Positions 18,546-25,448 of a stretch of 64,000 nt of DNA are shown here, piece by piece. Under the pieces are notes generated by a model. The model was not told where the DNA came from, made no database searches, and worked only from the letters and a program-made list of their open reading frames with translations. The stretch's first letter is position 1. Each line of letters starts with the position of its first letter. Source of the stretch: Acholeplasmataceae bacterium (lineage in GTDB: Bacteria > Bacillota > Negativicutes > Acidaminococcales > Acidaminococcaceae); contig JAAYVM010000132.1 in assembly GCA_012517145.1 (NCBI GenBank), forward strand, positions 9,689 to 73,688, written 5' to 3'. The translations under genes and the position numbers were made by a program.

Positions 18546-19022
18546 ATGAAAGAGTTTTACTGCGCAAACAGCGAGGAAACTGAAAAATTAGGTTTTGCTA
18601 TCGGTCAGACTGCCAGTGAAGGCGATGTAATTTGTCTTAGCGGTGATCTCGGTGCCGGCAAGACAGCTTTGGCTAAAGGGATAGCGTTGGCAAAGGGTGT
18701 GCCTGAAGAGGATATAACGAGTCCGACTTTTGCCATCATGAATATCTATAAGGGCAAGGATGCAGACCTCAGGCATTTTGATTTGTATAGGCTGAACAGA
18801 GCTGAAGAATTGGATGATATAGGCTTTGATGAATATGTGGGCGGCTGTGGAATCACAATGATTGAATGGGCAGATTTATTCCCGGAGGAAATGCCGGAGG
18901 AATATCTGCAAATCAATATCAGCGTGGAAAAAACAGGACGCAAAATCGTTTTGGAGCCCCATGGCAGACACTATGAAGAATTATGTGAGAAGGTGGAAGC
19001 ACTTGTTAATTCTGGGAATTGA
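18546..19022 (+). CDS. tsaE: tRNA t6A37 biosynthesis ATPase TsaE
   Basis: P-loop GDLGAGKT and SPTFAIMNIY...HFDLYRL motifs. Confidence 0.9.
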   Translation: MKEFYCANSEETEKLGFAIGQTASEGDVICLSGDLGAGKTALAKGIALAKGVPEEDITSPTFAIMNIYKGKDADLRHFDLYRLNRAEELDDIGFDEYVGGCGITMIEWADLFPEEMPEEYLQINISVEKTGRKIVLEPHGRHYEELCEKVEALVNSGN

Positions 19023-19698
19023 TACAGCGACTAAGGTTTGTACCGTATCTCTGCTGCGAGATAACGAACCGGTTGCGGAATACGAAATAAATGCCGGCAT
19101 GACACACTCGGAAGGGTTGCTGCCGCAAATAGGACAAATTTTCGAACGTACAAAGATAGCGAAAAAAGATATTGACTTGATCGCCATAAGTATCGGACCA
19201 GGTTCTTTTACCGGGCTGCGCATCGGTCTTGCAACGTCAGAGGCAATGGCTTATTCCTGGCAAATTCCTGTCTGTGGCGTTGATACCATGAAAGCTATGG
19301 CTTATAACCTGCCAGTTGACGATATCATATTGGCGCCGGTTCTGGACGCGCAGAAGGGCAATTACTATCTCGCACTGTATGAATGGCAAAATGGTGAATT
19401 AACGGAGCATCAAAAGGTGACGGTTGTATCCAGGGAAGAGCTGCTCACCAGGCTTTCGGAATTCGCAAAACCGGTAATGCTGTTAGGTGAATGTGCAAAG
19501 CTGGCACAAGAAAGCTTACCGCCGCTAGTGAAGCTTGCACCTTGGCAGGTGCGTATGCCAAAGGCTTCTTCCGTGGCTCTTTTGGGGCTGGAAGAATACA
19601 ATAATGGCCAAAGAAAAGATATTTTCGAACTAAATCTTCATTATATAAGACGATCGGAAGCAGAAGAATTATGGGAAAAACGGCAAAAGAAGGTATAA
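19003..19698 (+). CDS. tsaB: tRNA t6A37 biosynthesis protein TsaB
   Basis: ILGIDTAT start and GPGSFTGLRIG motif. The proposed TTG start at 19003 follows GAAGGTGG and overlaps the tsaE end by 20 nt. The longer ORF-track start at 18862 is unlikely. Confidence 0.85.
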   Translation: MLILGIDTATKVCTVSLLRDNEPVAEYEINAGMTHSEGLLPQIGQIFERTKIAKKDIDLIAISIGPGSFTGLRIGLATSEAMAYSWQIPVCGVDTMKAMAYNLPVDDIILAPVLDAQKGNYYLALYEWQNGELTEHQKVTVVSREELLTRLSEFAKPVMLLGECAKLAQESLPPLVKLAPWQVRMPKASSVALLGLEEYNNGQRKDIFELNLHYIRRSEAEELWEKRQKKV

Positions 19699-20129
19699 TA
19701 ACGCGCGAAATGTCCGCGGCAGATTTAAAGGCTGTGCGGGTCATTGAGCAGGAGTCTTTCCACGACAGTTGGGCTTTTGAATCCTGGCTGGCTGAGTTAA
19801 ACAGCAGCATAGCCAACTACATTGTGCTGGAAAAAGAAGGTATTATTAGGGGGTTCGCGGGTTTCTGGCTGATTGCCGGTGAAGCTCATGTGACTAGAGT
19901 AGCGGTGGCAAAGGATGAGCGGGGCAAAGGCCTGGGCAGAATCCTGACCGAAGCTTTGGTAGGCGCAGCTTGGCAGGAAGGTGCCGAGGCTGTTACCCTG
20001 GAAGTCAGGAAGAGCAATATCGCTGCTCAAACTGTTTACACACAAACAGGCTTTACTGTTTCAGGTGTAAGACCGCATTATTATGAAGACAATCAAGAAG
20101 ATGCCATTATCATGTGGCTGTATCGATAG
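19671..20129 (+). CDS. rimI: Ribosomal-protein-alanine N-acetyltransferase
   Basis: GNAT fold motifs ([35 protein letters not shown]). Canonical tsaB-rimI-tsaD context. The start is uncertain (19671 or 19710). Confidence 0.85.
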
Positions 20130-20146
20130 AAAAACAGGTGGATTTT

Positions 20147-21163
20147 ATGGTGAAAAAAGATATCTATATATTAGGAATTGAGAGTAGCTGCGATGAAACT
20201 GCTGCTGCCGTTGTCAAAAATGGCAGGGAAGTTTTATCGAACATTATTTCATCGCAGGTACCGATACATAGAAAATTTGGCGGTGTTGTGCCGGAAATTG
20301 CGTCACGCAAGCATATTGAAAATGTGCTGCCGGTTATTGATGAAGCATTAAAGCAGGCAAATGTTGGTATCAATGATATTGACGGTATTGCTGTAACCTA
20401 TGGGCCGGGACTGGTCGGGGCATTACTGGTGGGGCTTTCTGCCGGTAAAGCGTTGGCTTTTGCCTTGGACAAACCGTTGCTGGGCGTCAATCATCTTGAA
20501 GGTCATGTGTTTGCAAACTTCCTTGTTGATGGAGAGTTGGAGCCACCGTTTATGGCCTTGGTTGTTTCCGGCGGCCACACAGCCTTGATGAAGGTGAAGG
20601 ACTATAATAATTTTGAGTTGCTCGGGCAAACCAGGGACGATGCAGCTGGTGAAGCCTTTGACAAGATTGCGCGTGTCATGGGACTCCAGTATCCAGGCGG
20701 CCCTGAAATTGAATTGTTAGCAAAAGACGGCAATCCAATGGCGATTGATTTTCCGCGTGCTTTACTGGACCAAAGCTATGATTTCAGCTTCAGTGGCTTG
20801 AAATCAGCGGTAATCAATTACCTGCATACAGAAAAACAGGCCGGGCGTGAGATAAACAGGGCTGATGTTGCCGCCAGCTTTCAGGCAGCGATCGTTGACG
20901 TCTTGGTTAAGAAAAGCGTGCATGCCCTGAAGGCCAGCGGCTTAAAGAAAATAGTGCTTGCCGGCGGTGTTTCTGCCAACAAAACTCTGCAAGCAGAATT
21001 GGCGGCAGCAGTAGAAGCCATAGGAGTAACGCTTGTGCATCCTAAACCGGTGCTTTGCACAGATAATGCGGTAATGATAGCTTGCCGTGGCTATTATAAA
21101 TTTTTGAATAATGAATTCAGCGGCATGGATTTGAATGCTGATCCAGCTTTAAAATTAGGATGA
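20147..21163 (+). CDS. tsaD: tRNA N6-adenosine threonylcarbamoyltransferase TsaD
   Basis: [26 protein letters not shown] and VNHLEGH motifs. Confidence 0.92.
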
Positions 21164-21202
21164 AATAAGTAGGAAAACTTCTGGGGAAAAAATTGCGTCA
21201 AT

Positions 21203-21211
21203 TGTGGATAA
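21203..21211 (-). promoter_or_regulatory. Perfect DnaA box (TTATCCACA on the minus strand)
   Basis: The plus strand reads TGTGGATAA, an exact 9 of 9 match to the consensus. Confidence 0.6.
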
Positions 21212-21265
21212 CTCTGCAAAGACGCTTAAATACTAGCTTTTGCTTGTTGGTAAGTTGTGTGCATT

Positions 21266-21274
21266 TGTGGATAA
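21266..21274 (-). promoter_or_regulatory. Perfect DnaA box (TTATCCACA on the minus strand)
   Basis: The plus strand reads TGTGGATAA, an exact 9 of 9 match, in the same orientation as the first box and 63 bp from it. Confidence 0.6.
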
Positions 21275-21338
21275 AACCTTGACTGTTAGTGTATTGATGA
21301 ATATTCAGAAAAATCATTCTGCGATTAATGGAGGTATC

Positions 21339-22730
21339 ATGGCGAAAAGTTTCTTATCCAAAGAACAGATAAATCTGCTTAATTCTTGCATGGCTGGCGC
21401 TAATCTGGCAGCAGATATTGCTCATGCGCATGTATATCTCTATGTGCGCGACGAAGATCCGAAGTATATCAACGTCTATGGTCAGGCTCTGCCGCTTAAG
21501 GAGTTTGTGACACATTCAGCTAATATTACCGGGCGTAAGCTCAGGCTGGCAGAAGAACCTTTGGTCGGACGTACCATGCAGAGCGGTACGGTTGTCACGG
21601 GTAAGCGGGAAAGCATTCTAGGTTTTTTTGCTAAGATAAAGTTATTTCCTTTGCTTGATAAAAAAAGTCGTTGCTATGCAGTAATTGCCTTCGAAAAGAA
21701 TGGCGCAAACGGTGAGGAAGACGATGATATCTTCATCGATATAGCATTGGAACTGATGCTGAATTTTGAACAGAGATTTTCGACTGAACCAAATTACAGG
21801 CGGCTTTCGCCAAGTGACGGCATCATGATTGTCGATAAAGACAAGATTATCGTTGCTGCCAGCAACACAGCTCGTCATATACTTTCACTGCTCGGTGTAC
21901 CCAAACCGGTCGGCCTGCGTACCAACAGCCGGCAGATCAACTGGCCGTTGGTCGGTATGGTTATCAAGGCAGGTATTGCGGAAAGCAAAGAGGTCAAGAA
22001 ACAGGGCTTACTTTTGTCAATCAGAGTATTGCCTTTAACGCCCAAACAGGATACGCAGGCTGCCATCGTTGTTTTGACAGATATTACTGAACTCAAGAAG
22101 AAAGAAGAAGAACTGCTGGTCAAATCGGCAGTTATCAAGGAAATTCATCACCGAGTAAAAAACAATCTGCAGACCATTGCAAGCTTGCTCAGGATGCAGA
22201 CAAGACGTACAGAGGATGAAAATACCAAAAATATTTTGCGCGATATTATCGGCAGAATAAACAGCATAGCATTGGTCCACGAGGCTCTTTCGCAGCAGGA
22301 CAGCGATGTTGTGAATGTTGCTGAGGTAGCGGAACGCATTTATCAAGCGATAATAACGAGTATGGTAATGCCAGATTTTAAATTAGAAAGCAGTTTTTCT
22401 GCCGACGAACTTATTTTGCCGTCAGAGCAGGTAACAGCTATAGGATTGATTTTGAATGAATTGTTGCAAAATGCTTTGGAACATGGCTTTGAAAATTGCA
22501 CCAGCGGCAAAATGACAGTTGCTCTCAAAGTGAGACCGTATTGTTATTCGCTGGAGATAACAGATGATGGTGTTGGACTTCCTCCGGGTTTTGAAATTGG
22601 ACAAACTAATAGTTTAGGGCTTAAAATTATACAAACGATGGCTGAAGCTGATCTACACGGCACCTTTGAACTGCTGCCCTTAGAAAAAGGGACATTGGCC
22701 CGCGTAGAAGTACCAATAAGGAGAGAGTGA
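21339..22730 (+). CDS. Soluble sensor histidine kinase (HisKA_2/PdtaS-like)
   Basis: H-box EIHHRVKNNLQTIASLL, N-box ILNELLQNALEHGF, G-box DDGVGLP, and no TM segments. ATG at 21339 follows GGAGG. Confidence 0.85.
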   Translation: MAKSFLSKEQINLLNSCMAGANLAADIAHAHVYLYVRDEDPKYINVYGQALPLKEFVTHSANITGRKLRLAEEPLVGRTMQSGTVVTGKRESILGFFAKIKLFPLLDKKSRCYAVIAFEKNGANGEEDDDIFIDIALELMLNFEQRFSTEPNYRRLSPSDGIMIVDKDKIIVAASNTARHILSLLGVPKPVGLRTNSRQINWPLVGMVIKAGIAESKEVKKQGLLLSIRVLPLTPKQDTQAAIVVLTDITELKKKEEELLVKSAVIKEIHHRVKNNLQTIASLLRMQTRRTEDENTKNILRDIIGRINSIALVHEALSQQDSDVVNVAEVAERIYQAIITSMVMPDFKLESSFSADELILPSEQVTAIGLILNELLQNALEHGFENCTSGKMTVALKVRPYCYSLEITDDGVGLPPGFEIGQTNSLGLKIIQTMAEADLHGTFELLPLEKGTLARVEVPIRRE

Positions 22731-22734
22731 TATT

Positions 22735-23316
22735 ATGGAAAAAATGAGGGTTATAGTAGCTGACGACGAAACAATTATCCGACTGGATATCAAAGAAATG
22801 CTGACAGAAGCCGGCCATAGCGTTGTCGCGGAGGCTGCTGACGGCGAAGAGGCTGTGAGGCTGGCCACCGAGTTGAAGCCGGACCTCGTCATTATGGACG
22901 TAAAAATGCCTAAGATGGATGGTATTACCGCCGCACGTCTGATTAATGAAAAACATATTGCTCCTGTTTTACTTCTTACTGCTTACAGCCAGACAGATCT
23001 GATTGAAAAGGCTAAAGAATCCGGCGTGCTTGCCTATCTGGTGAAGCCTATCAGAGAAGAACAGCTTTTCCCGGCAATCGAAATTGCCCGTTCCCGTTTT
23101 GCAGAAATCAAGACTCTTGGTGAAGAATTGGATTATCTGAAGGAGAGTCTGGAGACAAGGAAACTGCTGGACAGTGCCAAAGGGATACTAATGGCTGCCC
23201 ATGGGTTTACTGAGGCGGAAGCTTATCGCAAGATGCAGAAATACAGTATGAACCAACGCACTACACTAAAAGAATTAGCAGAGGCTATCATTGCCGCTGC
23301 TGCTAAACGAAAATAA
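22735..23316 (+). CDS. Response regulator with ANTAR RNA-binding output domain (PdtaR/EutV-like)
   Basis: REC domain (VIVADDE...DLVIMDVKMPKMDG) plus ANTAR (LETRKLLDSAKGILMAAHGFTEAEAYRKMQKYSMNQRTTLKELAEAII). Confidence 0.9.
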   Translation: MEKMRVIVADDETIIRLDIKEMLTEAGHSVVAEAADGEEAVRLATELKPDLVIMDVKMPKMDGITAARLINEKHIAPVLLLTAYSQTDLIEKAKESGVLAYLVKPIREEQLFPAIEIARSRFAEIKTLGEELDYLKESLETRKLLDSAKGILMAAHGFTEAEAYRKMQKYSMNQRTTLKELAEAIIAAAAKRK

Positions 23317-23473: not shown

Positions 23474-23761
23474 ATGTTAAAACCATTAGCAGATCACATT
23501 ATTGTCGAAGCAATCGTGAAAGAAGAAAAAACTTCCAGCGGTATCTACCTGCCTGATACAGCAGCAAAAGAAAAACCACAAACAGGTAAAGTAATTGCCG
23601 TAGGTAAAGGTAAAGTTTTGGAAAACGGTACCCGTGTAGAACCAGAAGTAAAAGTTGGCGAAGTTGTTGTTTTCGCGAAATACTCCGGCACTGAGGTAAA
23701 AGTAGACGAAAAAGAGTATCTGATCCTCAGCGAACGTGATATTCTTGCAGTGCTTGACTAA
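23474..23761 (+). CDS. groES: Co-chaperonin GroES
   Basis: 95 aa, [10 protein letters not shown]...[15 protein letters not shown]. Confidence 0.95.
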
Positions 23762-23771
23762 GACAAACTAA

Positions 23772-25448
<1,677 letters not shown>

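Follow-up and report, generated by a model that had tools for sequence, protein, structure and literature searches.

Non-origin DnaA sites in characterised bacteria

Stable binding of DnaA has been described at eight intergenic regions of the Bacillus subtilis chromosome, with gcp-ydiF among them (Ishikawa 2007, PMC2533591). In that study the gcp-ydiF region was called uncharacteristic for transcriptional control because gcp and ydiF converge, no effect on expression was detectable there because expression is weak, and conservation of the cluster among Bacillus and close genera was already noted (PMC2533591). In vitro, gcp-ydiF is bound with a Kd of about 0.15 μM, ATP-DnaA being preferred 16-fold (Smith and Grossman 2015, PMC4447404). 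The region is also one of six non-origin clusters, the loss of all of which leads to early initiation (Okumura 2012, PMC3245932); deletion of gcp-ydiF alone brought no change, and when gcp-ydiF by itself was put back near oriC the six-cluster deletion was not rescued (PMC3245932). What gcp-ydiF by itself contributes to initiation control is thus unproven, and this cluster, DBC[gcp-ydiF], has stood among the strongest known B. subtilis DnaA-binding sites since 2007, still without an assigned function.

In Escherichia coli, the datA locus combines DnaA titration with datA-dependent hydrolysis of DnaA-ATP, and for the latter needs IHF together with a defined box layout. In Bacillus, YabA and DnaD/DnaB act with DnaA, including at DnaA-bound sites. 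The B. subtilis gene ywlC is now called tsaC and is a t6A gene. The promoters regulated by DnaA in B. subtilis include those of dnaA, sda, ywlC/tsaC and yydA, and ywlC is directly repressed by DnaA (PMC2533591). A preliminary description of the DNA studied here had pointed to a DnaA cluster at gcp-ydiF, and these reports (PMC2533591, PMC4447404, PMC3245932) bear it out.

The tsaD-kinase spacer and its genome

The window, meaning the whole 64-kb stretch of DNA that was analysed, is part of a 79-kb contig (C38) of a 2.47-Mb genome in 220 contigs (41% G+C, 97% complete). It contains exactly two perfect DnaA boxes, both on the minus strand and 63 bp apart from start to start, which lie between tsaD and the gene for a PdtaS-like histidine kinase. 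The features of the region are as follows.

18546..21163, plus strand: tsaE-tsaB-rimI-tsaD operon (tsaE 18546-19022, tsaB to 19698, rimI 19671-20129, tsaD 20114-21163, all plus strand; Pfam TsaE, TsaD-family for tsaB, GNAT, and TsaD at 5.9e-100)
21164..21338, no strand: tsaD-kinase spacer of 175 bp, non-coding, carrying both DnaA boxes
21189..21202, plus strand: conserved block AAAATTGCGTCAAT, directly 5' of box 1, almost invariant in the genus and found in the next genus (G017)
21203..21211, minus strand: DnaA box 1, proximal, a perfect TTATCCACA that reads TGTGGATAA on the tsaD strand, 40 nt past the tsaD stop
21266..21274, minus strand: DnaA box 2, distal, a perfect TTATCCACA, 103 nt past the tsaD stop
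21289..21315, plus strand: conserved block 3' of box 2, from the genus alignment, partly kept in G017
21339-22730, plus strand: PdtaS-like histidine kinase (Pfam GAF_PdtaS, HisKA_2, HATPase_c)
21354..21362, plus strand: one-mismatch box TTATCCAAA in kinase codons 6-8, present in 4/6 congeners
22735-23316, plus strand: ANTAR response regulator (Pfam Response_reg and ANTAR)
23474..25448, plus strand: groES-groEL (Pfam Cpn10, Cpn60)

The positions and the shared orientation given for the two perfect boxes in the preliminary description were verified, as was their placement in the 175-bp gap, which is bounded by the tsaD stop at 21163 and the kinase ATG at 21339. Shuffled versions of the window average 0.50 perfect boxes, in line with the figure of about 0.5 per 64 kb quoted there, and Pfam agrees with the gene names it had used for the tsaE-tsaB-rimI-tsaD operon, the PdtaS-like kinase and the ANTAR regulator, and also confirms groES-groEL. 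The gene order tsaD-HK-RR-groES is maintained across the family, and the closest named TsaD sequences are those of a Selenomonadaceae MAG and of Pelosinus, both at 66%.

A promoter and terminator scan of the 175-bp spacer returned zero terminators and zero consensus promoters. A search of the spacer against Rfam gave no match below E = 0.85 and the RNA fold z-score is an ordinary -0.03, and a structured RNA or riboswitch was rejected on these grounds. Open reading frames of at least 60 codons were likewise not found within the spacer, which is overlapped only by chance frames of 25-41 codons. A weak candidate promoter can be read by eye, with TTGACT at 21279-21284, beginning 4 bp past the end of box 2, followed after 17 nt by TATTCA at 21302-21307, and it overlaps a genus-invariant block that bears a perfect 10-bp palindrome, TGAATATTCA, at 21298-21307, some 30 nt before the kinase start codon. 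The palindrome could be an operator for some regulator or part of a -10 region. Box 2 is directly preceded by TGTGCATT, which looks like a decayed neighbouring DnaA box, and the one-mismatch box in the kinase gene may be incidental, being coding sequence.

The preliminary description had held that two copies within 70 bp are unlikely by chance, and that perfect boxes being common in the intergenic DNA of this genome would speak against its proposal. The 2.47-Mb genome holds 17 perfect DnaA boxes, compared with about 28 expected from base composition, and pairs within 70 bp occur at two places only, the rpmH-dnaA origin region and the tsaD spacer. For 17 random positions, the probability of any pair within 70 bp is 0.008 and that of two such pairs is 1.5e-5, which upholds the claim. 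For comparisons between loci, a cluster score was used in which a perfect box counts 2 and a one-mismatch box 1, and a tsaD downstream region was taken as positive when its first 250 bp past the stop totalled 4 or more. A whole-genome scan of box density, as had been proposed, put the tsaD spacer in the top three by cluster score and fourth by the A index of Ishikawa.

In B. subtilis, stable binding goes with an A index above 0.3 and four or more packed boxes. The best A index at the tsaD spacer is 0.13, below 0.3, and the 260 bp that give this value contain two perfect boxes and, in coding DNA, two one-mismatch boxes, which are not closely packed. Relatives from the family and the order reach 0.48-2.67. 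The organism's own origin regions score only 0.37 and 0.23 (the dnaA-dnaN region being the one at 0.23), so the 0.3 threshold may not transfer to this organism. Given the value of 0.13, no claim of stable binding is made here, and the claim is limited to a conserved pair of consensus sites.

The second perfect pair in the genome is palindromic, TTATCCACACCTGTGGATAA, and lies between rpmH and dnaA at C23:21612-21631 (L001:892-911; starts 21612/21623). This dnaA-side pair adjoins rpmH, as read from the reverse strand, and the GC skew of its contig flips sign there; the pair thus identifies the origin and provides a positive control for the box consensus, which is the same next to dnaA as in the tsaD spacer. 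The dnaA-dnaN spacer was observed to hold three one-mismatch boxes by the TTATCCACA search, or four under the TTATNCACA rule of Ishikawa. Along the 79-kb contig that carries tsaD, by comparison, the GC skew is steadily positive (+0.14), which indicates that the tsaD locus is not an origin and that the tsaD operon is co-oriented with replication. A second oriC at tsaD was ruled out on this ground, the origin being rpmH-dnaA-dnaN on contig C23.

The host DnaA matches that of B. subtilis (PDB 8btg) at E = 3e-145, with a near-identical domain IV that includes RDHTTV. The same box specificity is therefore expected, and the host protein should recognise TTATCCACA. Pfam searches of the 97%-complete genome for YabA (PF06156) and DnaD/DnaB_2 (PF07261) found none, with Bacillus and Lactococcus controls positive, which suggests that the Negativicutes lineage studied here differs from Bacillus in control and loading at DnaA. 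YabA was likewise not found in the four same-class genomes in the phylum sample described below.

Two other box-bearing loci of this genome were recorded. The strongest DnaA-box cluster in the genome (A = 0.70) is at C116:3281-3578 (L252:1151-1448) and contains tandem AACGGTTGATAAGTTGTTAAT repeats; it follows an EamA transporter gene and precedes a UxaE-like (PF16257) gene by 200-370 bp. The constant GC skew there rules it out as an origin. Boxes upstream of the UxaE-like gene were found in 14/14 examined same-family genomes with the gene, apart from one divergent family member (G012), and are absent from that genome and from four genomes of other families. A lone perfect box is present at C136:19105, in the divergent spacer between a PAS-GGDEF-EAL gene and a gene for DNA polymerase IV (dinB-type).

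Conservation of the site from the genus to the phylum

Thirty related genomes were searched and tsaD was located in 29, one being without a match. A cluster was scored in 5/6 congeners, and both sites recur with unchanged position and orientation in 6/6, so that the absence of boxes from close relatives, which the preliminary description had named as evidence against itself, was not observed. Box 2 is perfect in 6/6 congeners and box 1 in 5/6, with TTATCAACA in the sixth. In the spacer alignment of the seven genus genomes, 17/18 box columns are invariant, compared with 86/158 of the other columns (Fisher p = 7e-4).

Beyond the genus, clusters are present in 7/11 genomes from other genera of the family, with 3-6 boxes each, in 4/7 genomes of the order, where two further genomes have one or two boxes at the place, and in 1/5 genomes of the class. 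Among the cluster-positive relatives, 61 of 68 boxes are oriented as here (61 vs 7). The layout in the relatives comprises a proximal box or pair at +15 to +40 and a distal group at +78 to +110, the latter often a triplet of box, 3 nt, box, box; each of these two groups is represented in this genus by one surviving box. Boxes are lacking in four family members (G009, G010, G012, G018), and in precisely these four the spacer has shrunk to at most 53 bp; their kinase gene abuts or overlaps tsaD, and the kinase/ANTAR pair is retained. Three sister-family genomes (G019, G022, G023) lack the kinase/ANTAR pair and carry their boxes between tsaD and groES; only G019 reaches a score of 4.

The comparison was extended to an even sample of the phylum, in which 160 genomes were drawn and the tsaD 3' region could be read in 140, from 77 families; the sample takes in a B. 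cereus-group family and Peptococcus, as established by direct sequence match to named loci. A cluster was found within 250 bp of the tsaD stop in 86/140 genomes and 48/77 families, compared with 3/934 control windows, and when up to 600 bp past the stop was allowed the totals were 89 genomes and 50 families. In many genomes the cluster begins 0-40 nt past the tsaD stop codon. The boxes keep one orientation relative to tsaD by 375 to 35, same-strand neighbour spacings peak at 9 bp (76 cases), 12 bp (45) and 42-45 bp (55), and a three-box, 30-bp unit is present in 34/86 clusters. In the sampled B. cereus-group genomes the cluster occupies this same position behind tsaD, and most of its boxes point the same way.

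A second, independent collection comprised 80 named loci, 75 of which were analysed; 14/75 were positive, against 1/1597 control windows. The positives include Bacillus thuringiensis, Kroppenstedtia, Paucisalibacillus and Planococcus, together with three Clostridiaceae, an Oscillospiraceae, Syntrophomonas (Syntrophomonadaceae) and others, and the negatives include eight loci labelled Lachnospiraceae and 7/7 non-Firmicutes. In Paenibacillus lemnae (L093:6800-6950) a cluster was observed 2.8 kb downstream of tsaD, and in Bacillus sp. FJAT-49711 (L077:4400-4490) 0.4 kb downstream, which suggests insertions between tsaD and the cluster in these two. The preliminary description had proposed a comparison of tsaD downstream regions over Negativicutes, Clostridia and Bacilli and had raised the prospect of conservation in a distant Firmicute; clusters were found in 86/140 Bacillota, with Bacillus and Clostridiaceae among the named positives, and the prospect holds far more broadly than had been foreseen, for the genus, the family, the order and about 60% of the even phylum sample. 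Mapped on a TsaD tree of 167 genomes, the trait needs a minimum of 34 changes, compared with 50.0 +/- 3.1 for shuffled labels. The cluster is therefore an inherited trait that nevertheless often switches state, the change count being blind to gain versus loss. A literature search for the cluster beyond Bacillus and close genera found no report, most subscription journals lying outside the search; wide conservation of the tsaD 3' cluster in the Bacillota is thus absent from the literature searched, the kind of site itself being already known.

The cluster follows the tsaD 3' end and not the promoter of any downstream gene. It was found in 71/118 cases with a co-directional downstream gene and in 14/21 with a convergent one, and it is kept whether kinase/ANTAR, groES or a convergent gene comes next; where it is missing, the gap behind tsaD is mostly short. 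Its retention with any of these neighbours means that control of the kinase by DnaA is not what has been conserved. The preliminary description had suggested, with reserve, that the kinase/ANTAR pair might be under DnaA control, and this is not sustained, since relatives in which the kinase abuts tsaD lack the boxes and relatives without the kinase keep them. A local DnaA effect on the kinase/ANTAR genes in this genus, via the adjoining candidate promoter, is possible.

Next, the position and direction of the locus relative to replication were considered. In a complete genome of the same family, tsaD is 258 kb from oriC, or 12% of the replicon, and in 24 complete genomes it is mostly in the origin-proximal third, at a median of about 17% of the replicon. 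Distance from oriC was rejected as an explanation of presence or absence, the medians being 16.6% and 16.7% of the replicon from dnaA (p = 0.73, n = 24). In one family, f47, the GC skew read along tsaD is negative in 4/4 genomes (G110, G068, G149, G183; loci L210, L220, L227, L228), and the complete genome among them, G068, has tsaD running head-on into replication, an unusual arrangement for such an essential operon. The f47 boxes keep their orientation relative to tsaD despite the lagging-strand position of the gene, in what is a single evolutionary event. As these boxes follow tsaD and not the fork, orientation relative to the replication fork is not essential.

A possible link to YabA was also considered. 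In the phylum sample the cluster is present in 51/66 genomes with YabA (77%) and in 38/74 without (51%), with p = 0.0016 uncorrected for relatedness. Dependence of the cluster on YabA was ruled out, because 21/42 YabA-less families keep it, and, as this genome keeps its boxes with no YabA or DnaD/DnaB found, the Bacillus partner proteins are not required for retention.

Possible function of the site and comparison with known systems

The reading preferred here, with a probability of about 0.6, takes the two boxes as a reduced form, in this genus, of an ancient non-origin docking site for DnaA that is spread across the phylum 3' of tsaD and has a role centred on DnaA. Domain IV of DnaA would bind both perfect boxes, which, being 63 bp or six turns apart, face the same side of the helix, and in the relatives, where boxes abut head to tail (9 and 12 bp spacing, repeated every 42-45 bp), ATP-DnaA would oligomerise along the array. 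The initiator would in this way be held or handled away from oriC, redundantly with other clusters, and control of one particular neighbouring gene is probably not the conserved role. The sequence data show the site, its departure from randomness, its conservation, its fixed orientation and its indifference to the downstream gene; actual DnaA binding at the site and a part in buffering the initiator are what we infer. Note, however, that a pure titration site needs no fixed orientation to tsaD, which counts against the docking-site reading. The low box number and A index, the lack of effect when gcp-ydiF alone is deleted in B. subtilis, the equal distance from dnaA in genomes with and without the cluster, and the failure to find YabA and DnaD/DnaB also weigh against it.

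One rather unlikely idea, entertained because the orientation is kept in the flipped family f47, because the array survives without YabA/DnaD and because it is independent of the downstream gene and of the distance to oriC, is that the array is an ancestral Bacillota cis element tied to the tsaD (t6A) operon, serving as a DnaA-dependent transcriptional boundary or sensor. If true, initiator status would be linked to the end of the t6A operon in place of passive titration, and the genus studied here would represent a minimal two-box core. The fixed orientation (375:35) can also be taken as the mark of a boundary element of the tsaD operon itself, in which oriented DnaA would act as a roadblock or read-through valve and couple downstream expression to DnaA-ATP status. 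The f47 boxes, which follow tsaD and not the direction of replication, are consistent with such an element, as is the closeness of the cluster, which in many genomes starts 0-40 nt past the stop codon, and the empty terminator scan fits as well, since no intrinsic terminator follows tsaD here and read-through into the kinase gene is plausible. However, f47 is one event, equally explained by co-inversion of gene and cluster, the orientation could be inherited and not selected, and no expression effect was detected at gcp-ydiF, where expression is weak (PMC2533591); a boundary element is accordingly judged unlikely. Quite unlikely, too, is a role for DnaA as the transcription factor of the PdtaS-like kinase/ANTAR operon in this genus. 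The 4 bp between box 2 and the candidate -35, the co-directional kinase gene and the conservation in the genus of both the boxes and the putative promoter block argue for it, but the four family members with collapsed spacers keep the kinase/ANTAR pair without boxes, sister-family genomes without the pair keep boxes before groES, the cluster is independent of downstream gene orientation throughout the phylum, and the candidate promoter, a weak one, escaped the promoter scan.

It could also be that an ancestral dense cluster has eroded here and left two functionless boxes. The genus has two boxes where other genera have 3-6, the A index of 0.13 is below 0.3, the decayed-looking TGTGCATT stands beside box 2, box 1 is mutated in one congener, and losses are likely to be among the changes of state counted on the TsaD tree. 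Set against this, both boxes are perfect consensus, the box columns are almost invariant in the seven genus genomes where 46% of the other spacer columns vary, and the spacer is still 175 bp long, not collapsed as in the box-less relatives, so that a decaying remnant appears improbable. That the boxes coincide by chance, or serve a protein other than DnaA, is extremely improbable. Seven of 100 window shuffles did hold two or more copies somewhere in the 64 kb, but the genome-wide pair probabilities given above are small, and conservation of the same site at the tsaD end over the phylum has in effect already refuted chance; a different protein is hard to reconcile with a motif that is the exact DnaA consensus and is present at the organism's own origin.

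Kept behind tsaD with unchanged orientation by about 60% of the even Bacillota sample, the tsaD 3' site is under selection, and that sample extends to outer-membrane-bearing Negativicutes without YabA/DnaD. Rules for the site emerge from the comparison: boxes that abut, a periodicity of about 44 bp, a layout in a proximal and a distal part, and no dependence on the neighbouring gene, the direction of replication or the distance to oriC. What is added here to earlier work is the evenly sampled frequency, the orientation and spacing statistics, these three kinds of independence, the comparison with YabA/DnaD and the two-box core in this genus. For this genome alone the practical value is small, the result marking a probable DnaA site and suggesting that the stretch between tsaD and the kinase gene is not simply a gap within an operon.

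Compared with the DnaA-regulated promoters of B. subtilis, the locus is alike in having boxes near genes of basic function, with box 2 adjoining a possible -35; it differs in that the cluster of the relatives is tied to the tsaD 3' end and has no fixed relation to the promoter of a single gene. The likeness to E. coli datA is that of a non-origin, origin-proximal cluster of DnaA boxes thought to lower the pool of active initiator, while datA differs in its need for IHF and a particular box layout and in its genomic context, and there is no positional homology.

The closest described system is B. subtilis DBC[gcp-ydiF]. Binding of DnaA to that site is known in vivo and in vitro, whereas the site described here is predicted from its sequence. 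It has two boxes 63 bp apart and an A index of 0.13, whereas the B. subtilis cluster has eight, four of them perfect TTATNCACA, within about 50 bp, and an A index of 0.94. The downstream gene is a co-directional kinase here and the convergent ydiF in B. subtilis, and YabA and DnaD/DnaB, present in B. subtilis, were not found in this genome. The two sites are alike in lying directly 3' of gcp/tsaD, at the end of a tsaE-tsaB-rimI-tsaD operon with groESL near, away from the origin, and in being built of consensus TTATCCACA boxes, and the boxes here likewise keep a head-to-tail, single orientation, both being on the minus strand. In position and orientation, the tsaD-kinase site is thus the apparent counterpart of DBC[gcp-ydiF].
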